The notes under the pieces were generated by a model that was not told where the DNA came from, ran no database searches, and saw only the letters and a program-made list of their open reading frames with translations. From assembly GCF_964204645.1 (NCBI RefSeq), contig NC_134031.1:6696001-6760000 (forward strand): a stretch of DNA of 64,000 nt, given 5' to 3'. This document shows positions 1-38,560 of this stretch, piece after piece (position 1 is the first letter of the stretch; each line of letters opens with the position of its first letter). Made by a program: the position numbers and the translations under genes. Origin of the DNA: Tubulanus polymorphus. Its lineage: Eukaryota; Animalia; Nemertea.

Positions 1-464
1 ACTGTTTCTTCATTATCTGGTAACGTTTTCCCATATTTTATTTTTTCTAATAAATTATTTTTTCTTTCATTGAATTCAGTTTCAAATTTATTAGAAATTT
101 TATCTATATGTACTTTACGAAATTGATGATTCTCCCAATCTTCTATATTTTCGGGGTTATATTTTATTCGACAAGGCTCACAGAAATGATCTTTTATATT
201 ATCCTTATCATAGAATAAGAAAGGTCTTTTCCAAATAATTTCAGGTTCAACTTCAACAGAATTACTATCAACATTAGCCGTTGCACCATTAATTCTACAC
301 TTCTCTGAATGTTTTTTAACATAATTTCTTGAGAATAATTTATTACATTTTAGACAGTTTAGTTTAGGGGGTTTATAATTTTCTTCATGTTTTTTCATAT
401 GTCGAGCCATATTACTTTTACTTTGAAGTTCACCACAAATTTCGCATGCTATCTTCACTTCCAT
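1..464 (-). CDS. N-terminus of a C2H2 zinc-finger protein, possibly the element's protein-primed DNA polymerase B; runs off the window
   Basis: Manual translation MEVKIACEICGELQSKSNMARHMKKH...CLKCNKLFSRNYVKKHSEKC...FCEPC...HQFRKVH, open to base 1, with a TAAATG start. The pPolB identity is inferred from context only. Confidence 0.55.
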   Translation of the reverse strand, partial: MEVKIACEICGELQSKSNMARHMKKHEENYKPPKLNCLKCNKLFSRNYVKKHSEKCRINGATANVDSNSVEVEPEIIWKRPFLFYDKDNIKDHFCEPCRIKYNPENIEDWENHQFRKVHIDKISNKFETEFNERKNNLLEKIKYGKTLPDNEET

Positions 465-532
465 TTATTAAGGAAAAATTTTATTAAAATTAATTTTTAG
501 TGATGAGCGGTAATTTTTTTATGTTATAAATA

Positions 533-1291
533 ATGGTAGAATTAAAAGAATACAGAATATTTGTTGATTCTAGAAAACTTACAAATTATAAATCTCATAA
601 TTTACTAGTACAATTAGATAGAGAATTTAAGAATTGTGTTGATTTAAAATTAGTAAATGTAAGTTTATGTAATTCTTTTTATAATATATCGGATAAAACT
701 ATTGAACATAGAGCCTTTTTAATTTTTGATAAAAATAAAGATGAATGGTCCTATATATATTTAAAACCGGGGTTATATAATTTAGATACATTAGTACAAG
801 AAATTAATAGAAAAGCCTGGCACAAATTAGGTAGTAGTTCTGGGTTTGGTATTAGATTTTTAAAAAGTGAAAGTTCTGTTAGAATAAAGATAAGGTTGTC
901 TAATAGTGAAAAACATAAATTTATGGTAAAAAAACCTATAGCTAAACTGTTAGGAATTCTTCCAGATAGATCTTTTACAAATATTGATGCTACACCAAAC
1001 TTAATACCTTACACACATTTCTATATTTATTGCAATTTAATCGATCCTACAAAAACATTCGAAGCAACTAAAGATATAACTTGTAATTCTGGTTTATTAA
1101 ACATTTTACCATTGAAGAATGTTAAAGAATTTGGAATGCAAATAAATTATAATTTAACAGAATGTGATTTCAAACCATGCATTCCTCGTTTTAATAATTT
1201 TAGATTAGAAATTAGAAATCATAATGGATACTTAATTGATTTAAATAATTTCCCTGTAATTTATGAATTAGTTATAAGATGTAAAGAGTAA
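533..1291 (+). CDS. Putative minor capsid (penton, single jelly-roll) protein
   Basis: 252 aa, beta-rich. The C-terminal pattern YIYCNLID...LLNILP...FRLEIRNHNGYLIDLNNFPVIYEL resembles Polinton minor capsid proteins. Confidence 0.7.
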   Translation: MVELKEYRIFVDSRKLTNYKSHNLLVQLDREFKNCVDLKLVNVSLCNSFYNISDKTIEHRAFLIFDKNKDEWSYIYLKPGLYNLDTLVQEINRKAWHKLGSSSGFGIRFLKSESSVRIKIRLSNSEKHKFMVKKPIAKLLGILPDRSFTNIDATPNLIPYTHFYIYCNLIDPTKTFEATKDITCNSGLLNILPLKNVKEFGMQINYNLTECDFKPCIPRFNNFRLEIRNHNGYLIDLNNFPVIYELVIRCKE

Positions 1292-1307
1292 TTTTTTCAC
1301 TATATAA

Positions 1308-1649
1308 ATGAATATAACTGTTGGACCGAGTATATGTTTTGGGTTTGATTTTAAACATGGTAAAGAAATGAGAATTAAACTAAATGATGTAATTACTGAT
1401 ATAAAAAGTAAATCATTTAACAATGCATCAATGATTGATAAAGAAAATTATAATATAGAAAAAGTAATTGATTTAATTAAATCACCTTTAGAATATTATG
1501 AATTAAATGAAGATGGAATTATTGATGATATCAAAAACATATTATCCAAAATATATGATAATCATAAAACTAGTAATGAAATAAATGTTGAAATAATCAT
1601 CACTAAGATAACAAAATATTTTGATGATAGTAATTTTTTTGATAAATAA
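1308..1649 (+). CDS. Hypothetical viral protein
   Basis: 113-aa ORF with a TATATAAATG start, abutting the next ORF. Confidence 0.55.
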   Translation: MNITVGPSICFGFDFKHGKEMRIKLNDVITDIKSKSFNNASMIDKENYNIEKVIDLIKSPLEYYELNEDGIIDDIKNILSKIYDNHKTSNEINVEIIITKITKYFDDSNFFDK

Positions 1650-1871
1650 ATGAGTGATAATAAGTGGATAATAACTGGATTATATAATGGCGCATTATTA
1701 TCAGTTGGAACTGTTGGTTATTCAATGGTATTAAAAAAAGTATTTAAAATGGGAAGTGTTAATGTTGATAGATTTGATATAAATGATATTTTAAAGTTAA
1801 CATTAGCAGTTACTTTATCTAATTTAACTATTGATTATTTGGAAAAACAGAAATATATTCCTCCCATATAA
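1650..1871 (+). CDS. Small hydrophobic (membrane-associated) viral protein
   Basis: 73 aa with two hydrophobic segments, C-terminal DYLEKQKYIP and a TAAATG start. Confidence 0.65.
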   Translation: MSDNKWIITGLYNGALLSVGTVGYSMVLKKVFKMGSVNVDRFDINDILKLTLAVTLSNLTIDYLEKQKYIPPI

Positions 1872-1896
1872 ATGCATAATTTTTTTTGCTAAATAA

Positions 1897-2320
1897 ATGG
1901 CTTCTGCAATTATAACTATTATAGGATCGGCAATTGTTAACGCTTTAGCATTTACTGGTGGTGGTTATTTATTTAAACATATTGAAAAAAAATAGTTCAT
2001 TAGGAGAACAAAGAAGACATAACTTAGCGTTAGAGAAATACAATAAAGCTGCAGAAGAATATAGAGAAAAGAGACAAAACTATATGGATTACATCAATAA
2101 AGAATTATATGATCAGAAGATTTCACATAGAGATTTTCAATCAGTTGATGATGCAATGAGTTTATATAACGCAGTAACAAATAAAGAAAAATTACATCTA
2201 TACAAACCTAAATTATCAGATTATTATACCCCAAGTAAAGAACAACAGAAATATGAAATAATATGGATTTTAGGTGGAACTGTTATTGTTATATTTGTTG
2301 CTTATAAGTTTACTAATTAG
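1897..2320 (+). pseudogene. Viral membrane protein, frameshifted in an A-run near 1985-1992
   Basis: True start is TAAATG at 1897 (MASAIITIIGSAIVNALAFTGGGYLF). It continues in the 1958-2320 frame (EQRRHNLALEKY... and a C-terminal TM segment). Confidence 0.7.
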
Positions 2321-2339
2321 TAATTTTTATTCTAAATAA

Positions 2340-2773
2340 ATGGAAGATAAAGTTGATAGTATTGATATTATTCCTCATGATATAAATAAAACTAAATTAA
2401 AAACATATTTAGAAAAACAAATATTAGAATTTGAAAGTGACTTAAAGATAAAAAAAAAAAATATTTAAAAAGTAAAATTATATATTATTTGATTATAAGT
2501 GGTTCGGTTACAATTAGTTCTGTAGTAACATTTCTAGCAATATTCAGCCCATTAACACCTTTAGCTATATCAATTGGTGTATTAGGATTAAGTTCAAGTG
2601 TTTTAACCGGTATAAGTTCAAAATTAAATATAAAAAGTAATAAAGAAAAAATTAAAACTAATATAAAAGAAATTGATAAATTAAAGAACACACTAGATTA
2701 TATAATAAGTTTAAATGGCCATATAACAGTTGAAGAACAAGATAAATTATTAAAAGAATTAGTTAATTATTAA
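2340..2773 (+). pseudogene. Viral hydrophobic-hairpin/coiled-coil protein, frameshifted in an A-run at 2450-2461
   Basis: TAAATG start at 2340 (MEDKVDSIDIIPHD...) joins the 2489-2773 frame, which has a long hydrophobic segment. Confidence 0.6.
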
Positions 2774-2789
2774 TTTTTTAATTATATAA

Positions 2790-4178
2790 ATGGTAGATAG
2801 TTTTCCAAAAGCTTTCCAATATAATAAATCAATTAAATATAATATTCCAGCAATAGATTTTAATAAAGATATTACATATAGAAATGAAGTTTTAGATTCA
2901 TTAACTAATTTAGAAATTTATGTTACTGAAACTAATAATTTTAATGCAAAGATGGAAAATATATTTCATGTATATTTAATTAATTTTAAAAAATTGAAAG
3001 ATGAAAAACAATGGTTATTAAAATCTAATATGAAGTATTGGCAGAATCAATTAAATTTTGCTGTTTATTGTGCAACAACAGGATGTGGAATTAGTTGGAA
3101 TGATCATTTGAATAATTCTAAATATAAACTAATTCAAAGTTTATTTAGATTTCATACATACTTTCAAATCAGAATAATATTAAATGAATTAGAGTGCGCT
3201 TTACCAGGATCTAGGTATTTCAAAGAATTAGATAATAATATTAATTTATCTAAGTTTTATAAAATTTGCAATGAATTTAATATAGATATAAATAATTCTG
3301 ATTTTAGAACAAAAATTGGAACAATAAGATCACTTCCTTGCCCTGAAAAGATTGCAGAATATTGTGCACTTCCCATACCATCTAATAGTTTTTATAATAT
3401 CTATAATAATAAATTAGGTTATGGTAAAATAGAAACAAAGGATTTAGAAACATTAAATTTCAATAAATTACCGAAATTTTATGATAATTTAAAACAAGAA
3501 AACAATAATGGTTGGGTTTATTTTATTTTAGAAAATAGTGAAGGTTTTACTAAATCAGGTATAGAAAGAATAAATCAATCTATTAGAACTTATTTGATTT
3601 GTATTTTAGGTGCGCAAGTTGAAACAAGATCACCGATAATTGGAAATTTGAATACATCATTCGATACACAAAAACAATTTAAAGTATTATTTGAAGATTC
3701 AATTCATAATGATAAAAATAGATCGATTCCAGAAAACATTATAAGATATCAAAATTATTTAGATAAATCTCATGTAAGACTTAATTATTGTATAGGCCCT
3801 AATCTATTAATTATTTCTAATGATTTAGTATTAAAGATGGGAAATATAATTGGTTATAATAATCTAATTAAAACTGCAACAATAAATAATTCATTTGGAT
3901 TAAATGATATAAATAAAAAGATTATCACTGCTCCAAAATTAATGGAAGGTGAAAAAAATAAAAAACATATTCAATCAACTGAAACTAAAACTAAGAATAT
4001 TAAATTGGATAATGATTCCAAAATAAAAGATTACAATACATCAGAAAATAATAGAACTGATATTATTCAACATGATATAATTAAACTAAATGATGATAAT
4101 AAATCCCATGAAAATACTAAATTAGCTATAACTTGTATAGGAATTGTAATCGGAGGAATATTATATTTTAAATTTTAA
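2790..4178 (+). CDS. Polinton-associated protein of unknown function with C-terminal TM anchor
   Basis: 462-aa intact ORF with WQNQLNFAVYCATTGCGISW...FRFHTYFQ, a hydrophobic C-terminus and a TAAATG start. Confidence 0.7.
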   Translation: MVDSFPKAFQYNKSIKYNIPAIDFNKDITYRNEVLDSLTNLEIYVTETNNFNAKMENIFHVYLINFKKLKDEKQWLLKSNMKYWQNQLNFAVYCATTGCGISWNDHLNNSKYKLIQSLFRFHTYFQIRIILNELECALPGSRYFKELDNNINLSKFYKICNEFNIDINNSDFRTKIGTIRSLPCPEKIAEYCALPIPSNSFYNIYNNKLGYGKIETKDLETLNFNKLPKFYDNLKQENNNGWVYFILENSEGFTKSGIERINQSIRTYLICILGAQVETRSPIIGNLNTSFDTQKQFKVLFEDSIHNDKNRSIPENIIRYQNYLDKSHVRLNYCIGPNLLIISNDLVLKMGNIIGYNNLIKTATINNSFGLNDINKKIITAPKLMEGEKNKKHIQSTETKTKNIKLDNDSKIKDYNTSENNRTDIIQHDIIKLNDDNKSHENTKLAITCIGIVIGGILYFKF

Positions 4179-4194
4179 TTTTTTTATGATATAA

Positions 4195-5634
4195 ATGGAT
4201 GTAGAAGGTGGAGAAGATATTGGAATGGATAATTTTGATGAACCTGGTATAACTGATGAACAACCAACTGATTTTGATGAAACAAGTTTCAGTAACGAAA
4301 ATGAAACAGCATATAATTCTAATTTAGCAAGACCTGATACTAATGAATATGTTAATAAAGCACGTTCAAGATTGGACATTGAAAATGAAAATTCAGATTT
4401 AATGAAAAAAGAACTAGAATATGACGAATTAACTGATAAATTCAAACCAATATTAGAAAAATCTGGATTCAATATAACAAATAAAGGTGTGAATTATTTA
4501 GTAAAAGATTTGAAATATTTAAATGGTGATTATTATTGGCATTTGAAAGATGACTATTATTTTAAAATATCTTCTAATAAAAGTCTCGATAAAATAATAA
4601 CAAAACCAACTTTAATTAAATTAGAACAATCTAGAATTAAGAAAATCAACAATGATGTTATAACTGATGTTACAGAACAAGAGATAAATCAAAATAGAAG
4701 AGAATTTAATCGAAGAAATAATGATTTTTTGAAGATAATTAGTGAAAATTTAGAACCAGAAACAATTCCTAAAGAAGATATAACTTCCAAAACTAGTAAA
4801 CTTAAATCAAATAAAGTTCAAACTGAAAAACTTTTACCGAAGGGATTACTTGATGCAACAAAACAAGAATTAGAAGATTTAGATATATTTTCTGGTAAAG
4901 CAATAAGAGAAATTGAAAGTATAAGACATGCATCTGATAAAATTGCGCATGAAAAAGAAATAAGAGATATTAAAATTAGATTTTTAGAAAAAGAATTAAC
5001 TGATAAAAATAAAGAAATAGAACAATTAAAGTCTGATTTAGATCATCAAGTAATTGATGAAATAGAATATAAACAAAAAGAATTACGTTTAGAAAAAGAA
5101 ATAGATGATTTAAAATATAACAAAGAATTACAAAAAGAAGAAAGAGATACATTATTAAAATCATATGATTATAATATTAATAGATTAAAAGTTATTTTTA
5201 AAGATTTGTTGATTAAACCAAATTCTGAAATATCATTAAAAGACAGAATAAGATTATTATTTAAATTAGAAGGAATAACAATTCTTTCAATTCTAACAGC
5301 TGTAACTATGTTATTTACAACAATTGGTTTAGCAATATCAAATGCTTTGAAATCTACTCCCACTCCCAATAAACCAGATAAACCTCCAGGTAATAATTCT
5401 ATACAAGATAAAGTTAAAGATTGTTTAAAGAAATTAGCAAAATATTTATGGGAACTATCTAAAAAATCTGCTGCAGCATTGCCAGGAGTTATTGCTTCAA
5501 TTGTTGGTTTTATATTGAAATCTGCAGGAAACATTATTAACTTTGCTGCTGAACATATTATTTTATTTTTAATTACAGTTGTAAGTGCTATTATTTTTGG
5601 TTTAGTAAATATGATATCAAAAAATATCAAGTAA
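4195..5634 (+). CDS. Acidic N-terminus / coiled-coil / multi-TM viral protein
   Basis: 479 aa: acidic start, heptad-rich middle, hydrophobic helices (GITILSILTAVTMLFTTIG; ALPGVIASIVGFIL; ILFLITVVSAIIFG). Confidence 0.7.
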   Translation: MDVEGGEDIGMDNFDEPGITDEQPTDFDETSFSNENETAYNSNLARPDTNEYVNKARSRLDIENENSDLMKKELEYDELTDKFKPILEKSGFNITNKGVNYLVKDLKYLNGDYYWHLKDDYYFKISSNKSLDKIITKPTLIKLEQSRIKKINNDVITDVTEQEINQNRREFNRRNNDFLKIISENLEPETIPKEDITSKTSKLKSNKVQTEKLLPKGLLDATKQELEDLDIFSGKAIREIESIRHASDKIAHEKEIRDIKIRFLEKELTDKNKEIEQLKSDLDHQVIDEIEYKQKELRLEKEIDDLKYNKELQKEERDTLLKSYDYNINRLKVIFKDLLIKPNSEISLKDRIRLLFKLEGITILSILTAVTMLFTTIGLAISNALKSTPTPNKPDKPPGNNSIQDKVKDCLKKLAKYLWELSKKSAAALPGVIASIVGFILKSAGNIINFAAEHIILFLITVVSAIIFGLVNMISKNIK

Positions 5635-5701
5635 ACATGATATCAAAAAATATCAAGTAAACCATAATCAAAAATAAATAATTAATTTTTTTGTTAAATA
5701 A

Positions 5702-6936
5702 ATGAGTGGGAGTTATATAAGTCCTTCTAAGATTTCAAGAAAATCTAATGCTATTAAAGCAGAAAGATCTCATCATATAATTACTCATAACCCTTCTAAT
5801 ATTAATCCCGATGAAACTTTATATGTTAGAATTCCTAGATTAACACAAAATACTTTTTATGTTCCAAACAGTATTTATTTATCAGCTGATATAAAAGTTA
5901 CTGGCCATGATAACAATTATGTTGTTGATAATGTTGGAAGATATTTGATTAAAAAGTTAACAATAAAGATTGGTCCAGAAACAGTTTTCTCATTAGATGA
6001 TTATAATTTATTTATTTATTATAAAGATTTATGGTTAACTAAAGAAAATAGAAATAATATGATATTTCAGGGTATTCAATCAGAAAACCAAAATAAATTA
6101 AGATCTGAAGCCAATAACGCAGTAGTAAATAATGGTGTAGATAATTTGATTAAAAAGATTTATGGAAGCAAATATAAAATTCCATTAGACTTTGAATTAA
6201 TAAATAATAATGCACCTTTATATAAATACGCAATTCAAGAAGATATTATATTTGAGATAACATTTGCTCCTGTAAATGAAATTGTATTATCTAGCGTTGT
6301 TAAAGATATGGGTTATAAATTATCGAATATATGTTTAGAATATAACACAGTAACTAATGAAAATATTGCTAGCACAATTCAAACAATCAATACAATCAAG
6401 GATTTTCATTATTATATGATTATATTGATAAATTTAAAACTGTAACTATTAATGCAAATGATGAAATAATTAATGAGAATATTAACTTTCCTAGAAGATC
6501 TATTAAAGGTATATTAATATTTTTTACTATTGCAACATATTCTAATGGTGCAATAAATGTTGATAATTATTATAATCCTGAAATAACAAAAGTAGAAATA
6601 ACTATCGAAGGAATAGCGAATGAAATATTTTGTCAAGGAATGAGAATGATTGATCAATGGCCAGAAATTAGAAAACATTTTATGAATGAAAAAGTAAAAT
6701 CATTTGAAAATTGTAACATTAATCAAATTGATTATTATACCGGTAATAAATATGCATTATGGTTAGATTTTAGAACAACAGAAGATAATTCATTACATGG
6801 TTCTGGAAAAAAACTACAAAAAACTAAAGATGGAATACAATTATTCATAACAAAGAATAAAGGAATCAAAAATTTTAAAATGCACATTTATATTATATCT
6901 GACGCGCAATTAAATATTGTAAATTCACAATTAGAA
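5702..6936 (+). pseudogene. Major capsid protein (double jelly-roll); frameshift near 6381; last codons displaced to 10624-10638 by the LINE
   Basis: ERSHHIITHNPS..ETLYVRIP, then a shifted frame NQYNQGFSLLYDY..NINFPRRSIKGIL..YALWLDFRT..DAQLNIVNSQL. The remaining SIQY* (AGTATTCAATATTAG) lies immediately after the LINE tail. Confidence 0.8.
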
Positions 6937-6937
6937 T

Positions 6938-9900
6938 TTACTAAATCATGATGGCAAAGATTCACCTCTCAGTTTTTTTCATGCGAATGTACGAAGTGCA
7001 AATAAAAATTTTGATTCATTTTCCGATTATCTCCAAACTTTGAACTATAATTTTTCAATTGTCGGTTTGTCAGAAACATGGACTGATGACAATTGTCAAA
7101 ATGATTCATTGTATCATTTGCCGAATTATTCGAGTTTATTCCGCAGTAGAAACGATAAAGGAGGTGGCGGAGTTGCGCTTTTGATTAAAAATTCTATAAA
7201 TTTTAAGATCAGAGATGATCTCTCCTTAGCTGAATCTTTGTTTATAGAAGTCCCTCTTAAACCGAAAAGCATTATCGTCGGAGTTATTTATCGTGCTCCT
7301 GATAGTGATATAGCTAATTTCATCAAAGAATTTCAGTCATTTACTGAACGCGTAAATAAAGAGAAATTAGATGTTTTAATTTTGGGGGATTATAACATTG
7401 ATTTCGGAAATTACGGTGCGAGTGGTCAGTGTGACGCTTTTATGGATGAGGCTATTTCCAATTCATTTATGCCATTAATTAACCCTTTCGCTGCGTACAC
7501 GCTTGCACCGCCCCCTACGTAAGGTATTTTCCGAAAAATTCGATTTTTTTCAAGTTGTTTTTAACCCCGATTTTTCGCGTTTTTATCGAAGATTATGATG
7601 TTATTTAGTGAAAATCAGTAAAAAATCATACCAACAGCCTTTTCTGTAGGGGGGGGCGTGTTGGGGGGGGGGGGGGGTCAGGATGGGTTAAAAATTTTTT
7701 TTTTTCAGTTTTTCACCCAAGTGCCTATCTCAGTCTTTGGTGATTGATGCTACGGTGTGGATGAAAGAAATTCAATTGATATGGGATATCCTTTTCCGCT
7801 GGTAGAGGTACGTAAGTGGTGAGCCATCTCAATCCCGCGCAAATTACCATGTGCTCAACAGGCTGACAGCACCAACTACTGACGCATTTTCGCCATCTGT
7901 TGTTTAGAAAGCTAACTATCTTGTCTTACATGCGTTTCCATACTGTTTGCTGTGTACGCGTTCGAGTTATAAATCAATAGGTGCATGACGTTTCTACAAC
8001 GTCATACGCACAGCAAGTGTCACTCATATGACGTTTCCAAAACGTCACACGTAGCGAAAGGGTTAATATCCCTACTCGTGTCACTGACCACTCGTCAACC
8101 GTAATTGACAATATTTTGGTAAACTTTTTTGATAATTACAGTTTTACTAGCGGTGTATTTTTGGCGGACATAACTGACCATTATCCTATTTATACTTTTG
8201 TTCACGGTTTGTACGAGTCTCATGATACTAAACTACCGCGGATTAAAATCCGAAATATTAATCCTCGGACCACGGAACGCTTCACGCGCTGTTTATTATC
8301 ATGCGACTGGCAAAATGTGTATAATAGCAATGACCCAGAAGTCTCATGTAAGGAGTTCTATAACATTGTTGATTATTATTTTGAAATCTGTTTCCCTTTT
8401 AAGTATGTAACTCCTGGCGTGGAGAAAAATGATAAACCGTGGTTAACCTGTGGTATTCGACGTTCTATCAAACAGAAAGAAAAACTGTATAAAAAATATT
8501 TACGTAAAAAAACCCAGGAATGTAAGGATAAATATTGTACTTATCGAAGCTCAATTCGATTTTAAAGAAATGTAAGCAAATGTATTATAAGAATGTATTC
8601 GCCTCCTGCAAATCAGATCCTAAAGAAACATGGAAACAGGTTAATAACTTACTCAATAAACAGAAACGCGATAAACCCCATTCTCAATTTGTATATAAAG
8701 ACAAAGTAATCTCAACAGATTATGATATAGCCAGTGGTTTTAACGACTATTTTGTTAATATTGCCGGCTCCTTAGAATCAAAAATACCGCCTTCCGATAA
8801 ACATTTTAAAGATTTTCTAGAGGAACGAAATCATATAAACTTTTTTCTGTCACCGACGACACCCAATGAAATTGAATTAATTGTGCATGGCTTTAAAAAT
8901 AAACTATCCAGTGGTTGTGATCAAATCAGCACTAAACTATTGAAATCAATAATTCAAGTTATTTCACAACCCCTTTGTCATATTTTTAATAATAGCTTTC
9001 TTACGGGTATTGTTCCTAGCATATTTAAGATCGCTCACGTAACACCTATTTTTAAAAGTGGCGATAAATCGCAGTTCAATAACTATCGACCTATTTCTGT
9101 CCTTCCCGCTATATCTAAGATAATAGAGAAACTCGTTTATAATAGACTCCAGGCATTCCTTGAAAATTTCAATATTCTATCAGATCGTCAATTTGGTTTC
9201 AGGAAAAATAGATCCACTGCCTCAGCCTTAGCATTTATTACGGATAAGATAACTGATTATCTTGAAAATGGCAAAGTCACGATTGGTGTCTTCGTTGATT
9301 TGTCAAAGGCTTTTGACACAATCAATCATAATATTTTAATTTCAAAATTGGAAAATTATGGAATTCGTGGGCCCCCTCTACAATGGTTTCGAAATTACCT
9401 AGAAGACCGTAAACAATGTGTTAAATATAATAACTCCTTATCTCCAACTAGAAATATAACTTTCGGAGTTCCTCAAGGCTCAATCCTAGGTCCTTTGCTT
9501 TTTCTTGTATATATCAATGATTGCCCCTCTTCTTGTAAACTCCTAGAGTCAATTTTTTTCGCTGATGATAGTAATTTTTTCATCAGCGATAAGGACCCCA
9601 AGAAACTAGAGCAAGTTTTAAATTCTCAGCTGGAGAAACTACTTCAGTGGTTTCGAGCAAATAGGCTCTCTGTGAACGCTATTAAAACTCATTTTATTGT
9701 CTTTGGTTATAAGTGTCTAGGTCAAATTAATCTTTTTTTCGATGGACAAAGAGTTTCGCGTGTAGATAGTACTAAATTCTTAGGTGTAATTTTTGACCAG
9801 AGACTGACATGGCGGGACCATATTCAATACATCTCTCGAAAGGTTTCCCGGGGAATTGGAATCATCAATAGGCTTAAACATGTTCTTCCTTTTGGTGTTC

Positions 9901-10376
9901 TTAAAAATTCATATTATTGTTTTGTCAATCCACATCTTGCATATGCAACTTTAATCTGGGGTAATTCATGTAATATTTACTTGGAACCCTTATTTCGTCT
10001 CCAAAAGAAAGCAATTCGGATAATAACACATTCTTTTTGGCTAGCACATACAACTCCAATTTTCAAGAAATTAGAAATCTTAAAGCTACACGACATATAT
10101 CAATTTCAGCTGTGCAATTTTGTCTTTAGTCAAATTAATCAAAACTTACCATCAATTTTCAATGAATTTTACTGTTTTCTAAAATCCATGACAGGGCGAC
10201 CTTCTCGTCGCCCACTAAATTTAAAAGTGGAATATGCGAAATCTAACTTTAGAATGAAATCATTAAAAATCCAAGGTGCAAGATCCTGGAACTCCCTTCC
10301 CAGAAAACTCAAATCTTCGAAATCACGCCCTTTCTTTAAAAAATGCTTAACCAATTATTTGGTCGCAAAATACTAA
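6938..10376 (+). pseudogene. LINE ORF2 (APE endonuclease + reverse transcriptase), split by a MITE and one frameshift near 8545
   Basis: HANVRS, GLSETW, GGGVAL, LGDYNID, PTRVT..IDNI, TDHYPI, NYRPISVL, QFGFR, DLSKAFD, GVPQGSILGP, FADD. Confidence 0.92.
7483..8062. mobile_element. Non-autonomous piggyBac-type MITE
   Basis: TIRs CCCTTTCGCTGCGT / ACGTAGCGAAAGGG (13/14 match). TTAA at 7479-7482 and 8063-8066. Excision restores the EN frame FMPLINIPTRVTDHSS. Confidence 0.92.
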
Positions 10377-10668
10377 TGCCCGCAACGTGGCCGCCATTTA
10401 ATTGTTTATATATGTAAAGGGTGATTCTTGTAACGAATGTGCGTGTATGTGTAAGTGATGAGTGCATGTGAGTGTGATTGTTGACCGAGGGGTAAGGACT
10501 CGTATAAGTCAAATTTTGACTTCTCCTTACTCCTCGCACTATATATTGTTACTCTGAATATAATGTATATTGTGTCGATATTTTTTGTAACAATTTATTT
10601 TGCAAATAAATTCAAATTCAAATAGTATTCAATATTAGAAATATAAAGTTAAAATTAAGGATATATAA

Positions 10669-11796
10669 ATGGGTGGTAAAAAAACTCCTAATACTAAACA
10701 ACAATATTTAAGAAATTTATATTACAACCCTGAGAGTTCGGTTGCTTATTCTTCTACTAAAAATATATGGCGTAAAGTAAAACAAGATAAATTAGATAAG
10801 ATAATCCCACAAAATTTAGTTAAATATAAAGATATAAATGAATTTATGTTAGAACAACCAACGTATACAACACATAAAAAAATTGTTAGAAAATATAAAA
10901 CTCGTAAAACTATGGTAAGTTATGTAGATCAACAGTGGCAAGGAGATTTAATTGATATGAAAAATCTTAAAAAAGATAATAATGAATATTGGTGGATATT
11001 GAATATAATTGATATTTTTAGTCGTTATGTATGGAGCTTCCCACTTTATAGAAAAGATGCTGCACAAAAGTCACATTTTTTAAGAAAATTTCTTTCAGGT
11101 GGTAAACTAAAACCAGAAAAAATTCAATTTGATGATGGAAAAGAATTTGATAATTCATTAGTTCATGGTCTCTTAGATTTTCATAATATTAAATATTCTT
11201 CAACAAAATCGGATAAAAAAGCAGCAGTTGTTGAACGATTTAATAGAACATTAAGAACAAGAATGTGGAAATATTTTACAGCAAATAATACTTTTAAATG
11301 GATTGATGTTTTACCAAAATTTATAGAAGGATATAATAATTCTTATCATTCTTCTATTGGAATGAAACCTATTGATGCTAGAAAACCTGAAAATGCTTGA
11401 ATTGTTTGGAATAATTTATATGGAGCATTTCTTGTAGATGATTTTGGTGAACCTAAATTTAAAGTTGGTCAAAATGTTAGAATTTCTAAGTATAAAAAGA
11501 TATTTGATAAAGGATACGATCGAAATTTTACTAGAGAAATATATAAAATAAAAAAGGTAATAACAACAAAACCATATGACTATAAATTAGAAGATTTAGA
11601 TGGTGAAGAAATTGATGGCTACTTTTACGAAGAAGAATTAAGTTTAACTACTGAAAATCTAGAACAAGAATATAAAATTGAAAAAGTACTAAAAACAAAA
11701 ACTGTTAAAAGAAAAAAATATTCTTTAGTAAAATGGGTTGGATGGCCAGATAAATTCAATGAATGGATATTATCAAGTAAAATTAAAAATATATAA
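10669..11796 (+). pseudogene. Polinton rve integrase with C-terminal chromodomain; one in-frame TGA at 11398-11400
   Basis: WQGDLID, IDIFSRY, QFDDGKEF and VERFNRTL (DDE triad). The frame continues past the stop: PKFKVGQNVRIS...YKIEKVLK...SLVKWVGWPDKFNEWI. Confidence 0.9.
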
Positions 11797-12406
11797 ATGA
11801 ATAAGGAATTATTTATATTTGAGCCTCATAATATGTTAATTTCTGGTGTAACAAATTGTGGAAAAACTTATTTTATATTAAATTTATTAGAAACTGGTTA
11901 TGAAAACTATTTTGATAATATAGTATTATTTTGTCCAACATATGAATTTAATCAAACTTATAATAGAAATATTACTAGAAATAATAAATTTATTTATATT
12001 AGATCCTAAAACAGTAAAAGAAAATTTAGATAATTGTATAAAAATAGCAATTGATATTTATAAAGGATCAAATACATTATTCATTATAGATGATTGTGCT
12101 AATCTACATGATTCAAAAGTTAGAGAAAGTGAGTTATGTTATTTAGCTTTTTCTGGCAGACATTTTGGGATAACAACTTGGGTTTTAAATCAAAAATATA
12201 ATTCAATTGTTAAAGACTTTAGAGAAAACATTAGATTTCTAGTTTTATTCTACAATAAAGATAGAAAATCGATGAAAAATGCACTTGAGGAAAATGATAT
12301 TATTCCACATGATTTACATAATGAATATATGGATAAGTTGAAAAATATTAAAAGATCAAAATTACTATTTAGATTACAACACCCATTTAAATATGAATTT
12401 ATTTAA
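11797..12406 (+). pseudogene. A32/FtsK-like DNA packaging ATPase, frameshift near 12000
   Basis: Walker A SGVTNCGKT in the first frame. Walker B LFIIDD, GRH motif and Q..IVKDFREN in the second frame. Confidence 0.88.
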
Positions 12407-12410
12407 ATTC

Positions 12411-12660
12411 AATTAGTTTGTTAATCTAGTTGAATTCTAGTTATTGGTAGTTGTAACAAAAATCAAATAGATTTAACAATATTTTAACTAGCTTGTTAAT
12501 CTAGTTTAATTCTAGTTACATTCTAGTTGAATTCTAGTTGTTAGTAGTTGAAACAAAAATCAACTAGAATGTAACTAGAAATAAACAAAAACAACAATAT
12601 TTCAACTAGCTTGTTAATCTAGTTGAATTCTAGTTACATTCTAGTTAAATTCTAGTTGCA
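12411..12660. repeat. CTAG-rich palindromic repeat cluster
   Basis: Recurrent CTAGTTGAATTCTAGTT / CTAGTTACATTCTAG units, duplicated block AACTAGCTTGTTAATCTAGTT, hairpin TAGTTG..CAACTA. Confidence 0.8.
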
Positions 12661-12689
12661 ACATCACAACTAATTTTTTTGTTATATAA

Positions 12690-13295
12690 ATGGTAGGTGA
12701 AAAGAAAAGAAAATCTAAAAATGGTGATGTTCCAATTGAAAAAACTTTAGATGATTTAGGAATAACAGAAACAAAATTAACTCCAGATTATGGTGCTTTA
12801 AATAATGTTACAACAAATAATAATTATGAATATTATCTTTATTGCAAACATCAATTAGAAATATTAATAGCATCTGGAAAATGTAAAAATTTTGTCGGTA
12901 AAAATTTAACTTATAATGAATTAGATACAATGAAATCAGATGAAATTATTAGATTATTTAAGATTTATGAAGCCGCGAGAACAGCTAGAATTAATGACGC
13001 GATATCAGAAAATGTAGTAAAAGGTTATAGTAAATTATGTAATTATATACTACCAATTGAAAATGAAAATAGATTATATTCCGATTTAAAAAATGATTAT
13101 TTAGTTATGACTGAATTAAATAAATGGATTGGATATTTATCATTTCAATTAGGTGGATTTATGACATTATTATCTACTGGGGTTATAACATTTTCAAATA
13201 TTGAAAGTAAAAATATTTCTATAATAAATGAGCGAGGTGAAAGAAGTGAAGGAATTAACTGTGAAGAAAAAACCGAGAACTCAGAAACAAATTGA
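12690..13295 (+). CDS. Hypothetical viral protein with late hydrophobic segment
   Basis: 201-aa ORF with a TATATAAATG start. Confidence 0.6.
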   Translation: MVGEKKRKSKNGDVPIEKTLDDLGITETKLTPDYGALNNVTTNNNYEYYLYCKHQLEILIASGKCKNFVGKNLTYNELDTMKSDEIIRLFKIYEAARTARINDAISENVVKGYSKLCNYILPIENENRLYSDLKNDYLVMTELNKWIGYLSFQLGGFMTLLSTGVITFSNIESKNISIINERGERSEGINCEEKTENSETN

Positions 13296-13596
13296 ATGGT
13301 CTCGACAATTAGGAATTAAATCACAAGAATATAAAAAAGCTGTAAAAGAAAAAATAAGTAATAAAAATGTTAATAAAAATGGTGAAAATATTGTTATTTC
13401 TACTCCTTCTGATAGTAGAATATTTGATAAATATTTATATTTTACAGTTGGATTTGTAATTGTATTCATTTTGATTGGGTGTAATTGGTATAAGAAATCA
13501 AATAAAATTCATGATATTAGTAATTCTAAACCAACTGCTATCAAAAATGAAAGTACTTCTGAAATTTCAAAATTGATAATAAAAAAAATGGATTAA
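13228..13596 (+). CDS. Basic single-TM viral protein
   Basis: 122 aa with KKKPRTQKQIEW, a TM segment YLYFTVGFVIVFILIG and a TAAATG start. Confidence 0.6.
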   Translation: MSEVKEVKELTVKKKPRTQKQIEWSRQLGIKSQEYKKAVKEKISNKNVNKNGENIVISTPSDSRIFDKYLYFTVGFVIVFILIGCNWYKKSNKIHDISNSKPTAIKNESTSEISKLIIKKMD

Positions 13597-13680
13597 TATT
13601 TTAGAAAAAAAGCAAAAAAAATAATTGAATATCTCACTACTTTTGTCTATCTATGTGGAGCAATTAAATTGTCCAGATAA

Positions 13681-14595
13681 GTCATTTCGGATTCTAGATA
13701 TTCATTATTTTTATTAATTTATTTTGTTTTTATTTGAATATTTGAATTTGAATTTGTTAATCAATTAACATAGTAATTGATTACTAATTTGATTAAAAAT
13801 TATATCATAATTAAGTTAAAAATACATAATTCATTTATCAGTTTTCATTCTTACATTCTTTTCATTCGGAATAATTTATAATTTCAAATTTCACATATTT
13901 TTTTTAGCACCAGCTACATTTACTTAGGTGTTTTAGCTAAGTATATAAGGCAATTCATTCAACCACTGGAGTGCCGCCGGGCTTGGCTTGCAGGGGCATT
14001 TCGAAAATGCACCTTTGTCCACCCTCCGTGGTTCTCCTTCAGTTTCGACTTTCTATCCTCCTTTCGGGGGTAAGTGGTTGATAGGAAATGCATTAGGCGC
14101 CTTTAATATAATGTGTTTCCTGTCAACCATTGAAGGAGAATTGGTGAGGTGTGGGTCACAGGGGTGTAATTAGAAATGCTTGGGGATAGGTATCTCGTGG
14201 CGCCTCTCAATAACGGGATGCTTATCCCCTAAAAACTCTGTGAGTCAAGTCGGGTGGTTTTGCTAAAACTTACCGTAAAAACATTGAAATATTCCTTTTA
14301 ATCACGAGAGAATGATGACTATCCTCCTGTCGTCACGGCTGAGCTAATTTAAATAAACCTCGCTTTCAGCAACTAATGAAAACGCAGTAATTCAATACCA
14401 GCTAACTGGCTTGTGTGTGTTGTATGTACTGCGTGCTTATTATATAACAACAACGTTGTGCAACACCTGTTTGATTGATCAATATTCAAATGAAGCACTA
14501 TCTTATAATAACATGTAACAGATGTACTGTATGATTGTAGTTGTTTATAAAACGACTAAGGTCATTTTGGATTCTAGATATTCATTATTTTTATT
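13681..14595. repeat. 35-bp direct repeat pair (13681-13715 and 14561-14595)
   Basis: GTCATTT(C/T)GGATTCTAGATATTCATTATTTTTATT occurs twice, 880 bp apart, with one mismatch. Confidence 0.9.
13973..14261 (+). ncRNA. Candidate structured non-coding RNA encoded by the Polinton
   Basis: GC-rich island that folds by hand into eight helices with about 20 G-U pairs. Upstream TATATAA (13942-13948) and terminal TTTT (14258-14261). Confidence 0.65.
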
Positions 14596-14601
14596 TTTTA
14601 T

Positions 14602-14928
14602 TCAATCAACAATTTCTAAATCATGATGACCGTCTTCATTTTTCCCATGATATATTATTTTAAATCCTACTAAATCTTTCAATTCCTCCGTACTCAATGA
14701 AACCCATTTATCGGGTAAAAACACTTTAAATTCTCGCGATGTACTTACATTACAGTAGCTTAAATTAGCTGATACTTTCTCTCCATATTTAGTTTTTATC
14801 TTTTCTAATTTCAATATTTTATGTTCAATTTCTTTTGTAACATCAACTAACTTTTTTATTTCAAATTGTTTTTTTGCTGGTTTTATTCTGTTATTTATTG
14901 TTGATAAGAATGCTTTTCTATCTCCCAT
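14602..14928 (-). CDS. Small viral protein, possible OB-fold ssDNA-binding protein
   Basis: 108 aa, KTKYGEKV...FKVFLPD pattern, TATAAATG start. The fold is an inference. Confidence 0.5.
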   Translation of the reverse strand: MGDRKAFLSTINNRIKPAKKQFEIKKLVDVTKEIEHKILKLEKIKTKYGEKVSANLSYCNVSTSREFKVFLPDKWVSLSTEELKDLVGFKIIYHGKNEDGHHDLEIVD

Positions 14929-15189
14929 TTATAAGGAAAAAAAATATTTGTGGCGACGAGTGGTGTCTCGCCCTCTCGCCCTCTGATCTGAAACCCACAT
15001 ATTACAATTACTCATATTAATTCGGTTTTTTGATTGTCAAGGCTACCCTTCGTAGACATTTATCGCATGGAATTAAGTTGATTTCTGATACTCGAAAATG
15101 AGTAAGGTATCGTTTATATATAAGATTTAGTTAATTACATTTAGCAACACGTTTATATCATTACACCATCGGCAAAGTGAATAGATTTT

Positions 15190-27775: not shown

Positions 27776-29400
27776 TTAAGTTAAGTTAAGTTTATTTACT
27801 CCACAATTATACAATTGCACAGAGCACAAAATTAATTTACAATAGACATTGCAACATTTAACATTAGAAATGTATTAAACATTTGCGTATATACAACGCC
27901 AATTTTTTAAGAGTTTGGCAATTTGAGTTAAACAAATCATACAACTTTACGTTATTGGGGAATCTCCAATAACGCTCCGGGATATATCTAGCTCTGGATT
28001 CCTGGAAGTACGGGCAGACGAGTAAAAAGTGATATTCATCCCCCACCGCCACTAAATCACACTTTTGGCACAGCCTATTGGCACGGGCAATTCCACGCCA
28101 CCGCCCAACTTCCACCGGTAGCCTGTGAGCTGAGCATCTAAATCTACATAAAGTTAACCGGTCCCTAGGGGTTAATTCAGTTAGATACTTTTCCATTTCG
28201 AAACGGCATTTGATTGTTAAATACGTAACAGCCATAGTGGAATCAGTAAGTTTTGCATGCCAGACTTGCATAAACTGATCCTGCAATCTCTGTTTAAGAA
28301 TCAGACTCAAGTAATTCACGTTTGGAATATTTTGATTTTCCCAAATATATCCGAGCCCATTTCGGAGCAAAATGTTCTTCACAGAATCCATCCAAGAGTT
28401 AGCTTGACCATCAATATAGCTATTATAAACACAACTGTAAACCTTTGACGATAATTTATCATCAGTTATTAATTTTGCCCAAAAATTTACAATTCTAAGC
28501 TGTACGTAAACTTCGAGAGGAAAACGACCCAGTTCTCCATAGACAAATGAGCTATTAGTAGATTTCTTTAACTTGAGTAAATATTTAAAAAATTTCAGCT
28601 GCACGCACTCAAGAACTCGGAGATTTTCGTAACCCCAAATTTCACAACCAAATAATAGAATTGGTAATACCATGCTATCATATAACTTTAAACTAACATC
28701 AACGTCGAGTGAATATTCGCTAACCTTTTTTAAAACAGAGAACATAGCCCGCTGTGCTTGGTTTGCTAACGATTTTCGGCACTGAGCAAAAGACCCGGTA
28801 TGGGAGAATAGTATACCCAAATACTTATAGTTATATACTAACTCCAACACTCGACCGTTTATATTAAACTCCGGAGGGTTTCGGAGTCTTCGTTTCGAGA
28901 ATATCATTACTTTTGTTTTTTCGCAATTTATTTGTAACTTCCAATCTTTGCAATAAACATGCAGGTTGTCAATCAATTTCTGAGGACCCTGTGGACTCTC
29001 GCTCATAAGTACTGTATCGTCTGCGTACATAAGGATCATCAATTTGACCCATGCATCATTACGCATGCGCAGATTTAGGGAGGGACAATTTTGAGCATCT
29101 AAATAGCCTTCCAGATCATTTAAAAATATTGAAAAGAGCACAGGGGACAAATTTTCTCCCTGTCTGACACCCATAAAACTTTCAAAGGCATCTGTTTTAC
29201 TATCATTAGAAAATACACATGACTTGATGCCCTGGTACATGCTACATATTACATTTAGAACTTTGCCCGTAACACCACTATTGATCATCTTATGCCACAG
29301 AGCCTTTCTCCATATGCTATCAAAGGCACGTTTGTAATCTACAAAAATGCAGTAAAGCTTGCGATTACTATTCAAAAACATATCCACAAGTGACTTAAGG
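27776..29400 (-). mobile_element. 5'-truncated LINE (RTE-X/L2-like) with open RT ORF 27864-29387
   Basis: DYKRAFD, GVRQGENLSP, YADD, C-terminal CxxC..DEYH..C, and an AATAAA(CTTAA)n tail. A second related 3' end lies at about 27400-27480. Confidence 0.88.
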
Positions 29401-29816
29401 GAGATTACTTTAATCTCGCACTACATCCCCTTAGTTTGTCGTTTGCCTTCTTTGTTTTCTTCCTTAGTGTTCCGGTTTTTGTTGTTTAATGACTTTAATC
29501 TTAATCCTTTAATCTTTATCTTGATCATATTTTTGTATAAATATCCTGTTATAAGATTTTGTTCTCAGTACGCCAGATAATGGCTAACAGTTGTTAGCCG
29601 AAACCTCGCTCCTCAAATACAATCATTCTGATATAGAATTTTACAATTTTGGCTTTGTTATTGTGGGATTTCTCTCGTCATCATCATACTCGGATATTGT
29701 GTATCTTCTCGTCTAATATTGATAGAAAGGGTTTCCTGCATGAATATTCACTGTTTGAGCAAATCTAGTAAACACCCGATATACCGCTACCCGCCTACTT
29801 AGATATCTACCAGTGA

Positions 29817-37401: not shown

Positions 37402-38229
37402 TGTCCTTTCGTATTTATCTGAATTTGAAAAATTCAAGGGAATTCGTCATACTGCCTACGAGCAGTTAGTGATCCCTTCTTTATTGAAGGTTTTGAAAAA
37501 ATGTACCAAAAATGTATCCATGACACGTTCGATCTAGGGTTAAGCAAACGAAAAAGGAAAAAGATTAATTCTATCAACTCACCGACAACTGTAGTGAAAC
37601 TGCGGGTTGAGTAGAAGGAAATTTGACTTACCTCGAACCCTATCAAAAGCGAATTTAGCTCTGTGTCCCGAATTTTAAGTCACACCAGTTATTGTTATAC
37701 ACTCATTCTGAAACGCTATATATATAGAACAATTATATTACCAATTAGTTTGTTTTGTTTGTTTAGTTCCTACGTAATCACGTATAGATCTAGAGCATAA
37801 TTATAACCTGTTGTCGGTAATTTGTCTGATATTTTGTCTATGTTTTGCCCTTGACACATTCTCCATTAGTAGATCTTTGGTAGATGGTTCAGATGGTTAG
37901 AATATGAAGAGGGGAAATTTGTAGCAATAAATCCATTTAATTATTTGAAAATGAGTTGTTTACTGTTTGTGCTTCTATGGATATTCTTCAATTACAAACA
38001 GGAACAACGAAATGTTTATCGCCGTCTCGGTGTTTGGTTATCTATTAACATTTTGTCCGGAAAGGAAAATTAGCGCCACTTAAGGGTAAAAACGCGCTCG
38101 TGTATTGAGCAGAAATGTCATTAGCGCTAATTGTCCTTCAAGCTAACGTACAAGTTTTTATGCTCGGTGTTCATCTTTTTTTAGGCGTCTACAAAAAATA
38201 CGAAAAATTGCCCAATAATAATCAACATG

Positions 38230-38560
38230 AGTAATTACAACATAGCGTTTTCAGATCAGAGGTCGAGAGGTCGAGTTGCCCCCATTTTTCGACCACCTAA
38301 TTTTTTTTCTATATAAATGGCCAAAAAATCTATAATATAATTTAGATGATTTTACATTTTAAGATAGATAAAGCTATACAATGTGACTTAGAAAAAATGT
38401 TTGAAGGAAAAGGTATTCAATGTGATTTAGATGATGAAATTGATAGAATTAGAAAATATTATCCTGATGAAATAGTTTACGGTAGTTGCGGCAGAAGATT
38501 AACCGGCTAGTTGATCTAGTGTATCCTTTATTTGATTCTTGTTGAATTCTAGTCGCAGCG
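38230..38560 (+). mobile_element. Terminal relic of a second, related Polinton
   Basis: AGTAATT..TTTCAGATCAGAGGTCGAGAGGTCGAG..T8CTATATAAATG aligns with the reverse complement of 14926-15012. It also carries a CTAG/GAATTC motif. Confidence 0.75.

Follow-up and report, generated by a model that had tools for sequence, protein, structure and literature searches.

The integrated element

We analysed a stretch of 64,000 nucleotides from the nemertean Tubulanus polymorphus (contig NC_134031.1, positions 6,696,001 to 6,760,000; hereafter the window). Window positions 1 to ~15,015 are occupied by an AT-rich insert (~23% GC) lying within host DNA of 37% GC, whose genes include a rhodopsin-family G protein-coupled receptor (GPCR), DPM2 and NUBPL, recognised in exons by Pfam. 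The insert is a decayed, integrated Polinton-like virus (PLV) with a double jelly-roll (DJR) capsid, a penton, an rve integrase and an A32 ATPase. Every gene of this element starts with the same bipartite signal of 20 bases with fixed spacing, consisting of an AT core at positions -19 to -11 relative to the start codon and the hexamer TAAATG overlapping it. The core contains either a run of T (T-type) or AAAAT (A-type).

A zinc-finger open reading frame (ORF; 3..464, minus strand), which has a homolog in the related metagenomic locus L001, continues past the left end of the window. Its ATAA-ATG start (here and below the hyphen precedes the start codon) has the A-type core AATAAAAT. A gap of 68 nucleotides (465..532), in which the start signals of 464 (minus) and 533 (plus) lie back to back, separates it from the minor capsid (penton) gene, a single jelly roll (533..1291), which has a TAAATA-ATG start and a T-type core. 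This gene and those that follow are on the plus strand unless noted otherwise. The next ORF has no assigned function (1308..1649), and its T-type signal occupies the entire 16-nucleotide gap behind the penton stop. The T-type signal of the small conserved ORF that follows (1650..1871; 90% identical in L001) lies inside the end of the preceding ORF, with the stop of that ORF serving as the TAA of TAAATG. T-type signals also precede a hydrophobic ORF frameshifted into the pieces 1897 and 2084 (1897..2320); an ORF broken in the window copy, whose L001 homolog has a weak SLATT-like match with two transmembrane segments (2340..2770); a conserved protein of 462 amino acids with a hydrophobic C-terminal segment (2790..4178); a coiled-coil protein of 479 amino acids with a hydrophobic C-terminus (4195..5634), whose signal again occupies a 16-nucleotide gap; and the gene of the major capsid protein, frameshifted here (5702..6951).

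A host-type long interspersed nuclear element (LINE; 6952..10620, plus strand, edges approximate and placed with the GC profile) lies between the capsid and integrase genes. Its reverse transcriptase ORF (8580-10376; RVT_1, E 5e-38) has no TAAATG start. The rve integrase with a chromodomain (10669..11796; rve E 5e-9, both rve and Chromo in the L003 homolog) carries a premature stop here and has the A-type core GTTAAAAT. Its stop provides the TAA of TAAATG for the frameshifted A32-like packaging ATPase (11797..12406; Pox_A32 matches; A-type core GTAAAAT). Behind the ATPase there is an array of CTAG palindromes (12407..12670) with strong folding (z -3.5 to -8.2). A conserved ORF of 201 amino acids (12690..13295) has a T-type signal, and within its end lies the A-type signal of an ORF of 122 amino acids with one hydrophobic segment (13228..13596). 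The last ORF, beside the terminus (14602..14928, minus strand; 108 amino acids, 74% identical in L001), starts with a T-run and ATAA-ATG and has no gene upstream. Hydrophobic segments are present in at least five element proteins (1897-4178, 4195-5634, 13228-13596), beyond the expectation for a simple naked capsid, which suggests a membrane-containing particle. In the window copy five genes are frameshifted or stopped.

Pox_A32 and rve were above the Pfam cut-off, both in genes broken in this copy. The capsid matched neither the DJR-like nor the Capsid_NCLDV model of Pfam, and the Capsid_NCLDV search of three further records was also negative. A relative of the capsid protein, P0001 (77% identical), yields a model (predicted local distance difference test, pLDDT, 74) with Foldseek matches at E 1e-15 to the capsids of the Paramecium bursaria chlorella virus PBCV-1 and iridoviruses, and the predicted fold identifies the major capsid protein as a double jelly roll. 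The capsid family comprises 2477 clusters at 50% identity. In the Atlas the capsid matched unnamed capsid clusters only, and a homolog of ORF 2790 matched nothing. A more distant capsid relative, P0066 (36% identical), belongs to a 135-member cluster on contigs of up to 1 Mb, and thus to an endogenous family present in many copies in a eukaryotic genome. The model of the penton, ORF 533 (pLDDT 60), aligns with a PBCV-1 chain (Z 13.1, root-mean-square deviation 2.4, 125 aligned) and with the mavirus penton (Z 9.7), and Foldseek matches it to virophage and adintovirus pentons.

No DNA polymerase B was found in the window, whose left edge cuts off the left arm of the element. A fragment of a DNA polymerase is present in the relative L006, and its homologs include PF03175 proteins and named proteins of mussel, aphid and mite; three proteins of the group closest to the fragment had no polymerase Pfam match when scanned themselves. 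No adenovirus-type cysteine protease was found among the scanned ORFs of the window and relatives, which include no complete element. RNA polymerase and VLTF families were absent from the 16 window and 21 relative proteins scanned.

The start signal

The initial annotation had listed 13 starts reading ATAAATG, the start of ORF 533 reading TAAATAATG, and the same ATAAATG at 38317 in a relic element, and direct reading bears this out. Its statement that every viral ORF has the motif is true once ORFs 2084, 6640 and 11942 are read as the downstream parts of genes broken by frameshifts, and ORF 8580 is assigned to the LINE reverse transcriptase. As background we used the 368 other ATGs of the same AT-rich element DNA, excluding the LINE and a GC-richer insert. 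ATAA-ATG is present at 13/14 gene starts and at 9/368 other ATGs (Fisher p 1e-17); the remaining start, 533, is TAAATA-ATG, and TAAAT(G/A) overlaps the start codon at 14/14 starts.

The pattern TAATTTTT precedes nine of the 14 starts vs 2/368 other ATGs, and a run of five T residues precedes 11/14 vs 16/368. Among the TAA-ATG sites alone the T run marks 10/13 starts vs 1/23 non-starts (p 1e-5). The run lies at about -16 to -11, and the register of the core is rigid, with T at -19 in 11/14, A at -18 and at -17 in 12/14 each, T at -14 in 14/14 and T at -13 in 13/14. The T-tract that the initial annotation described before most starts is indeed found, as a T-type core, at ten of the 14, whereas 464, 10669, 11797 and 13228 have the A-rich AAAAT in its place. 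Two gaps of 16 nucleotides and one of 19 hold the start signal alone, and the stops at 1289 and 4176 provide its first TAA.

The motif is present at 0/6 placeable host starts (GPCR 59353 and five starts of a tandem family), in agreement with the initial annotation for the GPCR and the tandem family. The visible DPM2 exon begins at a splice acceptor. All six host starts have A at -3, whereas 13/14 element starts have T in this position, which rules out Kozak context as the source of the motif. The T run cannot be explained solely as a terminator of the upstream gene, similar to the polyT terminators of African swine fever virus (ASFV), since such a run is likewise found before 533, before 14928 and before the relic ORF, none of which has a co-directional gene upstream.

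Coding DNA shows no depletion of TAAATG (15 vs 11.7) or of TTTTTNT (4 vs 6.9). In antisense orientation TAATTTTT does not occur within the element coding sequences (3-14928), whereas codon shuffles give an expectation of 5.6 +/- 1.6; this was one of 14 tests, and hints at selection against stray promoter cores. Gene ends have no common hairpin of the type known from virophages and the invertebrate iridescent virus IIV-6: when the region from -10 to +60 around the stop was folded, z < -2 was observed at 5/49 gene ends vs 3/49 mid-gene controls (p 0.25).

Conservation among relatives

A scan of metagenome contigs gave 22 loci, in which starts were called by one fixed ORF rule. The motif-bearing set consists of 15 loci (L001-L014 and L017) and includes near-duplicates (L002/L003, L009/L010, L011/L012/L014). 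In these loci TAA-ATG is found at 55/64 starts vs 86/2191 other ATGs, and in three relatives of 36-44% GC at 9/11 vs 8/366. In the cores of the relatives T is present at -12 in 52/55 and at -13 in 41/55. When a matrix was built from 43 starts in 11 non-redundant relatives, with the window excluded, and applied to the 2233 ATGs of the window, the 13 starts with TAAATG and that of the relic were among the 15 highest. The AT content, like Kozak context one of the refuting alternatives named in the initial annotation, fails against the other ATGs of the element DNA and against the relatives.

The capsids of the motif-bearing loci form one clade (Shimodaira-Hasegawa-like approximate likelihood ratio test 93, quick maximum-likelihood tree) with four subclades ~50-60% identical, and L015 falls outside. 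In the sister lineage L015/L016 (30% GC), which has the same gene set, TAA-ATG is found at 0/8 starts. Instead, ATATA(A/G) or TATAA precedes the ATG by a few bases at most of these starts, which is nearer to the TATA initiator of ASFV, and this lineage may follow another helper. The remaining loci, L018-L022, are decayed and distant; their starts are unreliable, and the 0/5 called starts have no test value.

In six loci from four lineages, divergent genes that both start with TAAATG are separated by just 19-30 nucleotides (the partner ORF in one pair, in L003, has no confirmed homolog). Such pairs leave no space for ordinary 5' untranslated regions (UTRs). The N-termini of the element proteins are conserved from the ATG of TAAATG onwards.

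The relative L001 (11.5 kb) holds all window genes and in addition a deoxynucleoside kinase, with no polymerase subunit. The kinase (Pfam dNK, E 1e-31), located at L001:10343-10981 and L007:2898-3380, would be useful for DNA synthesis in the cytoplasm. No relatives of the element capsid, ATPase, polymerase fragment or integrase were found in IMG/VR, and the phage collection likewise gave no match; hence there was no canonical Maverick set to serve as a control.

Start signals in other viral loci

When IMG/VR was scanned with a strict motif, 20 loci resulted, mostly chance matches. None of them is poxvirus-like as judged by ORF content (no formal classification), a negative of little weight for want of a figure for the poxviruses in that collection. 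Two giant-virus bins, G001 and G002, encode capsids closest to that of Singapore grouper iridovirus (E 5e-123 and 9e-117), and both encode RPB2 and VLTF3. In the 33 and 30 kb read, TAA-ATG is found at 12/32 starts vs 29/1080 other ATGs in G001 and at 12/28 vs 39/1025 in G002, one start per bin being the seed match. The regions upstream of starts are T-rich, and divergent pairs 21-29 nucleotides apart are present. The T-type pattern occurs six times in G001 and twice in G002 vs 0 for the reversed control, and the cores score above those of non-start TAAATG sites (p 8e-7, partly because starts are intergenic). Judging by sequence, ~40% of the starts in these iridovirus-like bins follow the start grammar of the element in a less strict form, and the grammar is not specific to poxviruses. 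Candidate helpers with this grammar thus exist.

A looser scan, in which 80 of 120 loci were examined, gave a match at an ORF start in five of the 80, again mostly by chance. These 80 AT-rich, loosely matched viral loci provide a background: TAA-ATG was observed at 24/332 other starts, and at 5/47 in the giant-virus bins among them. The near-universal use of TAA-ATG is therefore unusual. One further IMG/VR record of 205,791 bases, L055, with phosphatase, metallophosphoesterase and DUF5770 genes, has TAA-ATG at 2/6 starts, one of them with a T run. Four loci that appear prasinovirus-like by eye (L023, L031, L032, L038) have TATAA-ATG at up to 3/9 starts.

Other features of the window

Only the right terminus of the element lies within the window. 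The right terminal region (14929..15022) has its likely end, AGTAATT, at ~15013 (+/- ~10 nucleotides), and matches the start of a relic of a sister element (38220..38555, plus strand; 330 bases) with 75% over 102 nucleotides. The relic consists of a terminal region, the T-type signal with ATAA-ATG at 38317, a short broken ORF and, behind it, a CTAG palindrome (38499-38553) related to the array at 12407-12670. The array could be a site of origin, resolution or termination, and does not reflect a general rule for gene ends. A direct repeat of 27 bases (13689-13715, 14569-14595) bounds a region between the converging ORFs 13228 and 14928 that contains a GC-richer stretch (~13950-14540); this region is possibly an insertion.

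In the host DNA there is a second LINE-type reverse transcriptase at 27864-29420 (RVT_1, E 4e-25). Five or more host genes with multiple exons form a tandem family at 18000-47600; it has a signal-peptide-like start, and the two pieces scanned gave no Pfam match. Arrays of GGGAACC/GGGAGCC repeats, inverted and 1.1 kb apart, at 50951-52319 are likely a non-autonomous transposon.

Comparison with known promoters

In the late promoters of vaccinia virus, as described, TAAAT and a subsequent G overlap the start codon, and 10 nucleotides upstream there is a conserved T with further T residues beside it; the intermediate promoters are described as TAAA with an A/T-rich stretch 15-19 nucleotides upstream, then T (PMC11980589). 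Compared with this description, the T at -13 in the element lies exactly 10 nucleotides before TAAAT, as in the late promoters, and the A-type core fits the intermediate promoter (PMC11980589). The TAAATA variant, cf. ORF 533, is allowed in vaccinia promoters (PMC5294985). Unlike in vaccinia, the promoters of the element sit on a Polinton of ~15-17 kb in which no RNA polymerase was found, and in them TAAATG is preceded by a further conserved A, and the T run by TAA.

An initiator of this kind yields poly(A) leaders by slippage both in vaccinia and in yeast linear plasmids (PMC6211774). The pGKL killer plasmids of yeast, which replicate by protein priming, share the TAAAN initiator with the element (PMC6211774). 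Unlike the element, they have their own RNA polymerase and capping enzyme and no capsid or integrase.

The genes of virophages and PLVs are known to carry the promoter of the helper, as in EMALE04 and mavirus with Cafeteria roenbergensis virus (CroV) (PMC10945749) and in Gezel-14T with Phaeocystis globosa virus (PgV) (bioRxiv 2022.07.28.501842). The element resembles the pairs mavirus/EMALE04-CroV, Sputnik-mimivirus and Gezel-PgV in being a small integrating, capsid-coding double-stranded DNA element with an rve integrase and a promoter of the kind used by large cytoplasmic viruses. However, the hosts of those virophages and PLVs are protists with a known helper, and the motifs are different (TCTA for CroV late genes, AAAATTGA for PgV early genes).

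Among animal elements, PLVs associated with entomopoxviruses have been proposed to be hyperparasites of poxviruses (Barth et al. 2024, PMC11296320). These encode a cysteine protease and no rve (PMC11296320), whereas our element has rve and no protease was found in it. The words "promoter", "motif" and "TAAAT" do not occur in the main text of that paper. The DJR capsid, penton, A32 ATPase and rve integrase are shared with the animal Maverick/Polintons (Polintoviricetes), and the relative L006 carries a putative Polinton-type DNA polymerase. As for differences, no cysteine protease was found in the window or in the scanned relatives, which include no complete element, and the capsid misses the Pfam DJR-like and Capsid_NCLDV models. 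Animal PLVs beyond the two Maverick groups have been described (Bellas and Sommaruga, bioRxiv 2026.06.19.733378).

As regards other large DNA viruses, the DNA polymerase promoter of IIV-6 requires AAAAT at -19 to -15 (PMC5294985), which resembles the A-type core. On the other hand, the 3' hairpin rule of IIV-6 does not hold in the element, and the parts of PMC5294985 used here describe no TAAATG late consensus for iridoviruses. Iridovirus-like particles have been reported from marine invertebrates (PMC5923455). The late genes of ASFV have a TATA initiator, a poorer fit to the signal of the element (PMC7458399).

Discussion

Since the 20-base signal is present at all 14 genes, is kept in distant relatives and is similar to late promoters of poxviruses and other large DNA viruses, a co-infecting virus of this kind likely lends its RNA polymerase to the element. 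We consider it probable, as far as can be judged from sequence alone, that the signal serves as a promoter of the post-replicative type and that the RNA polymerase reading it belongs to a co-infecting large cytoplasmic DNA virus, in the manner of virophages, and we divide this probability about evenly among pox-like, iridovirus-like and other helpers. The polymerase, of the type encoded by nucleocytoplasmic large DNA viruses, would be that of the helper, and the element would be unable to read the signal alone. Transcription would start in the AAA immediately before ATG, and slippage would add a short poly(A) leader. Such a leader would place A at -3 of the message, so that T at -3 in the DNA would be tolerated. 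The integrated copy would be mostly silent until the helper infects the cell, as mavirus with CroV. The genes with T-type cores (the capsid and most membrane-type proteins) and those with A-type cores (in this copy the ATPase, the zinc finger, 13228 and the integrase) possibly form two temporal classes. Dependence on a helper fits because there are precedents for promoter sharing and the scanned proteins include no RNA polymerase or late factor. Of the earlier suggestion that a co-infecting pox-like or other large cytoplasmic DNA virus may transcribe the element, the conserved, element-specific bipartite signal with the layout of vaccinia post-replicative promoters stands; a link to poxviruses in particular is not supported, given the iridovirus-like bins and the TAAAN initiator of yeast plasmids.

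Several observations weigh against transcription by a helper. No helper virus was found in the window, and none is tied to the host. Coral polintoviruses are transcribed, and the preprint reporting this names no helper in the part used here (bioRxiv 2023.10.06.561300). The likeness to vaccinia was drawn from the verbal description of a review, with no side-by-side matrix. The left arm of the element lies beyond the window. The bins G001 and G002 were chosen because each held one exact match; their core is far looser than that of the element clade (median score -0.9 vs 7.2), and their capsid genes start with TAAAA-ATG and TAACA-ATG. As for the two temporal classes, the class of the core is kept only in part between orthologs (T in 8/11 capsid genes, with the penton and 1308 differing between the window and L001), and in divergent pairs the T core of one gene is necessarily the A core of the other.

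Alternatively, the signal might be a compact promoter of host RNA polymerase II, with an initiator-like part and a short AT core bound by TATA-binding protein (TBP) or by a factor of the element, giving near-leaderless nuclear mRNAs with no helper. We regard this as rather unlikely. Being integrating elements, Polintons are commonly assumed to function in the nucleus, as this explanation would have it. Several starts read TATATAAATG, which contains a TATA box, and the conserved ORFs 2790, 12690 and 14928, which have no known function, are potential activators. Host TBP also acts on the intermediate and late promoters of vaccinia, according to a title cited in PMC5294985, and the coral polintovirus genes mentioned above are transcribed (bioRxiv 2023.10.06.561300). 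However, the TATA-like word adjoins the ATG, and initiation 25-30 nucleotides downstream would remove the conserved N-termini. The T at -3, opposed to the A of all six host starts, and the back-to-back pairs also speak against a host promoter, and the absence of the motif from the sister lineage is what would be expected if lineages tracked different helpers. Another possible source of transcription is a viral-type RNA polymerase encoded in the left arm of the element, which is outside the window, or by a sister cytoplasmic element. This would be the arrangement of the yeast killer plasmids, which combine protein-primed replication, their own RNA polymerase, the TAAAN initiator and poly(A) leaders (PMC6211774). 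It appears very unlikely: L001 has no polymerase subunit besides all the window genes, and the DNA polymerase homolog P0246 and the L001-type capsid P0050 are both on contigs of 16,883 bases, probably one and the same, which would leave no room for an RNA polymerase. Moreover, the upstream element of the yeast plasmids is early-type and has no T core.

If TAAATG were instead a signal of translation, the stop before the start could serve termination-reinitiation on polycistronic RNA or insulation from upstream reading; indeed, its TAA is in frame with ATG, and at 1650 and 11797 it is the stop of the upstream gene. However, starts abut the upstream frame in just 2/13 cases in the window and 2/57 in relatives, the signal is also present at genes with no gene upstream (14928, the relic, divergent pairs), and the rigid core at -19 to -11 would be left unexplained, so that we find this highly improbable. 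Finally, we give practically no credence to the motif as a by-product of AT richness and of the choice of the first ATG behind a stop. The element has only ~23% GC, but the comparison with ATGs of the same DNA (p 1e-17), the persistence of the motif at 36-44% GC, its frequency of 24/332 in AT-rich viral loci and its absence (0/8) from the sister lineage of 30% GC all argue against such an origin.

The signal itself is real, and its sequence points to promoter sharing of the virophage type in a new setting, an animal-integrated Polinton. No title or abstract reporting a pox-type promoter on an animal Polinton was found in the open-access literature covered; the word "promoter" is absent from the coral polintovirus preprint (bioRxiv 2023.10.06.561300), and the portion covered of Bellas and Sommaruga (bioRxiv 2026.06.19.733378) has no promoter analysis. 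A preprint on Halocafeteria applies the same logic of promoter sharing in a protist.

What activates the Polintons of animals, and why virions of theirs are so rarely observed, is a question of long standing. Helper promoter sharing has so far been established for protist virophages and PLVs only, and the animal evidence is that elements co-purified with an entomopoxvirus and were mobilised in cell lines producing baculovirus (PMC11296320). One possibility, to which we assign somewhat less than an even chance, is that a Polinton clade with members fixed in the animal germ line consists of provirophages wired to a two-class post-replicative promoter code of the pox/iridovirus type and woken only by infection with a large cytoplasmic DNA virus. 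The motif would then be a fingerprint predicting an undiscovered helper, and the integrated elements might provide a metazoan with an inducible defence like that of mavirus. As a sequence fingerprint, the 20-base promoter may be used to tell Polinton lineages that depend on a helper from those transcribed by the host, and to hunt for the helper.

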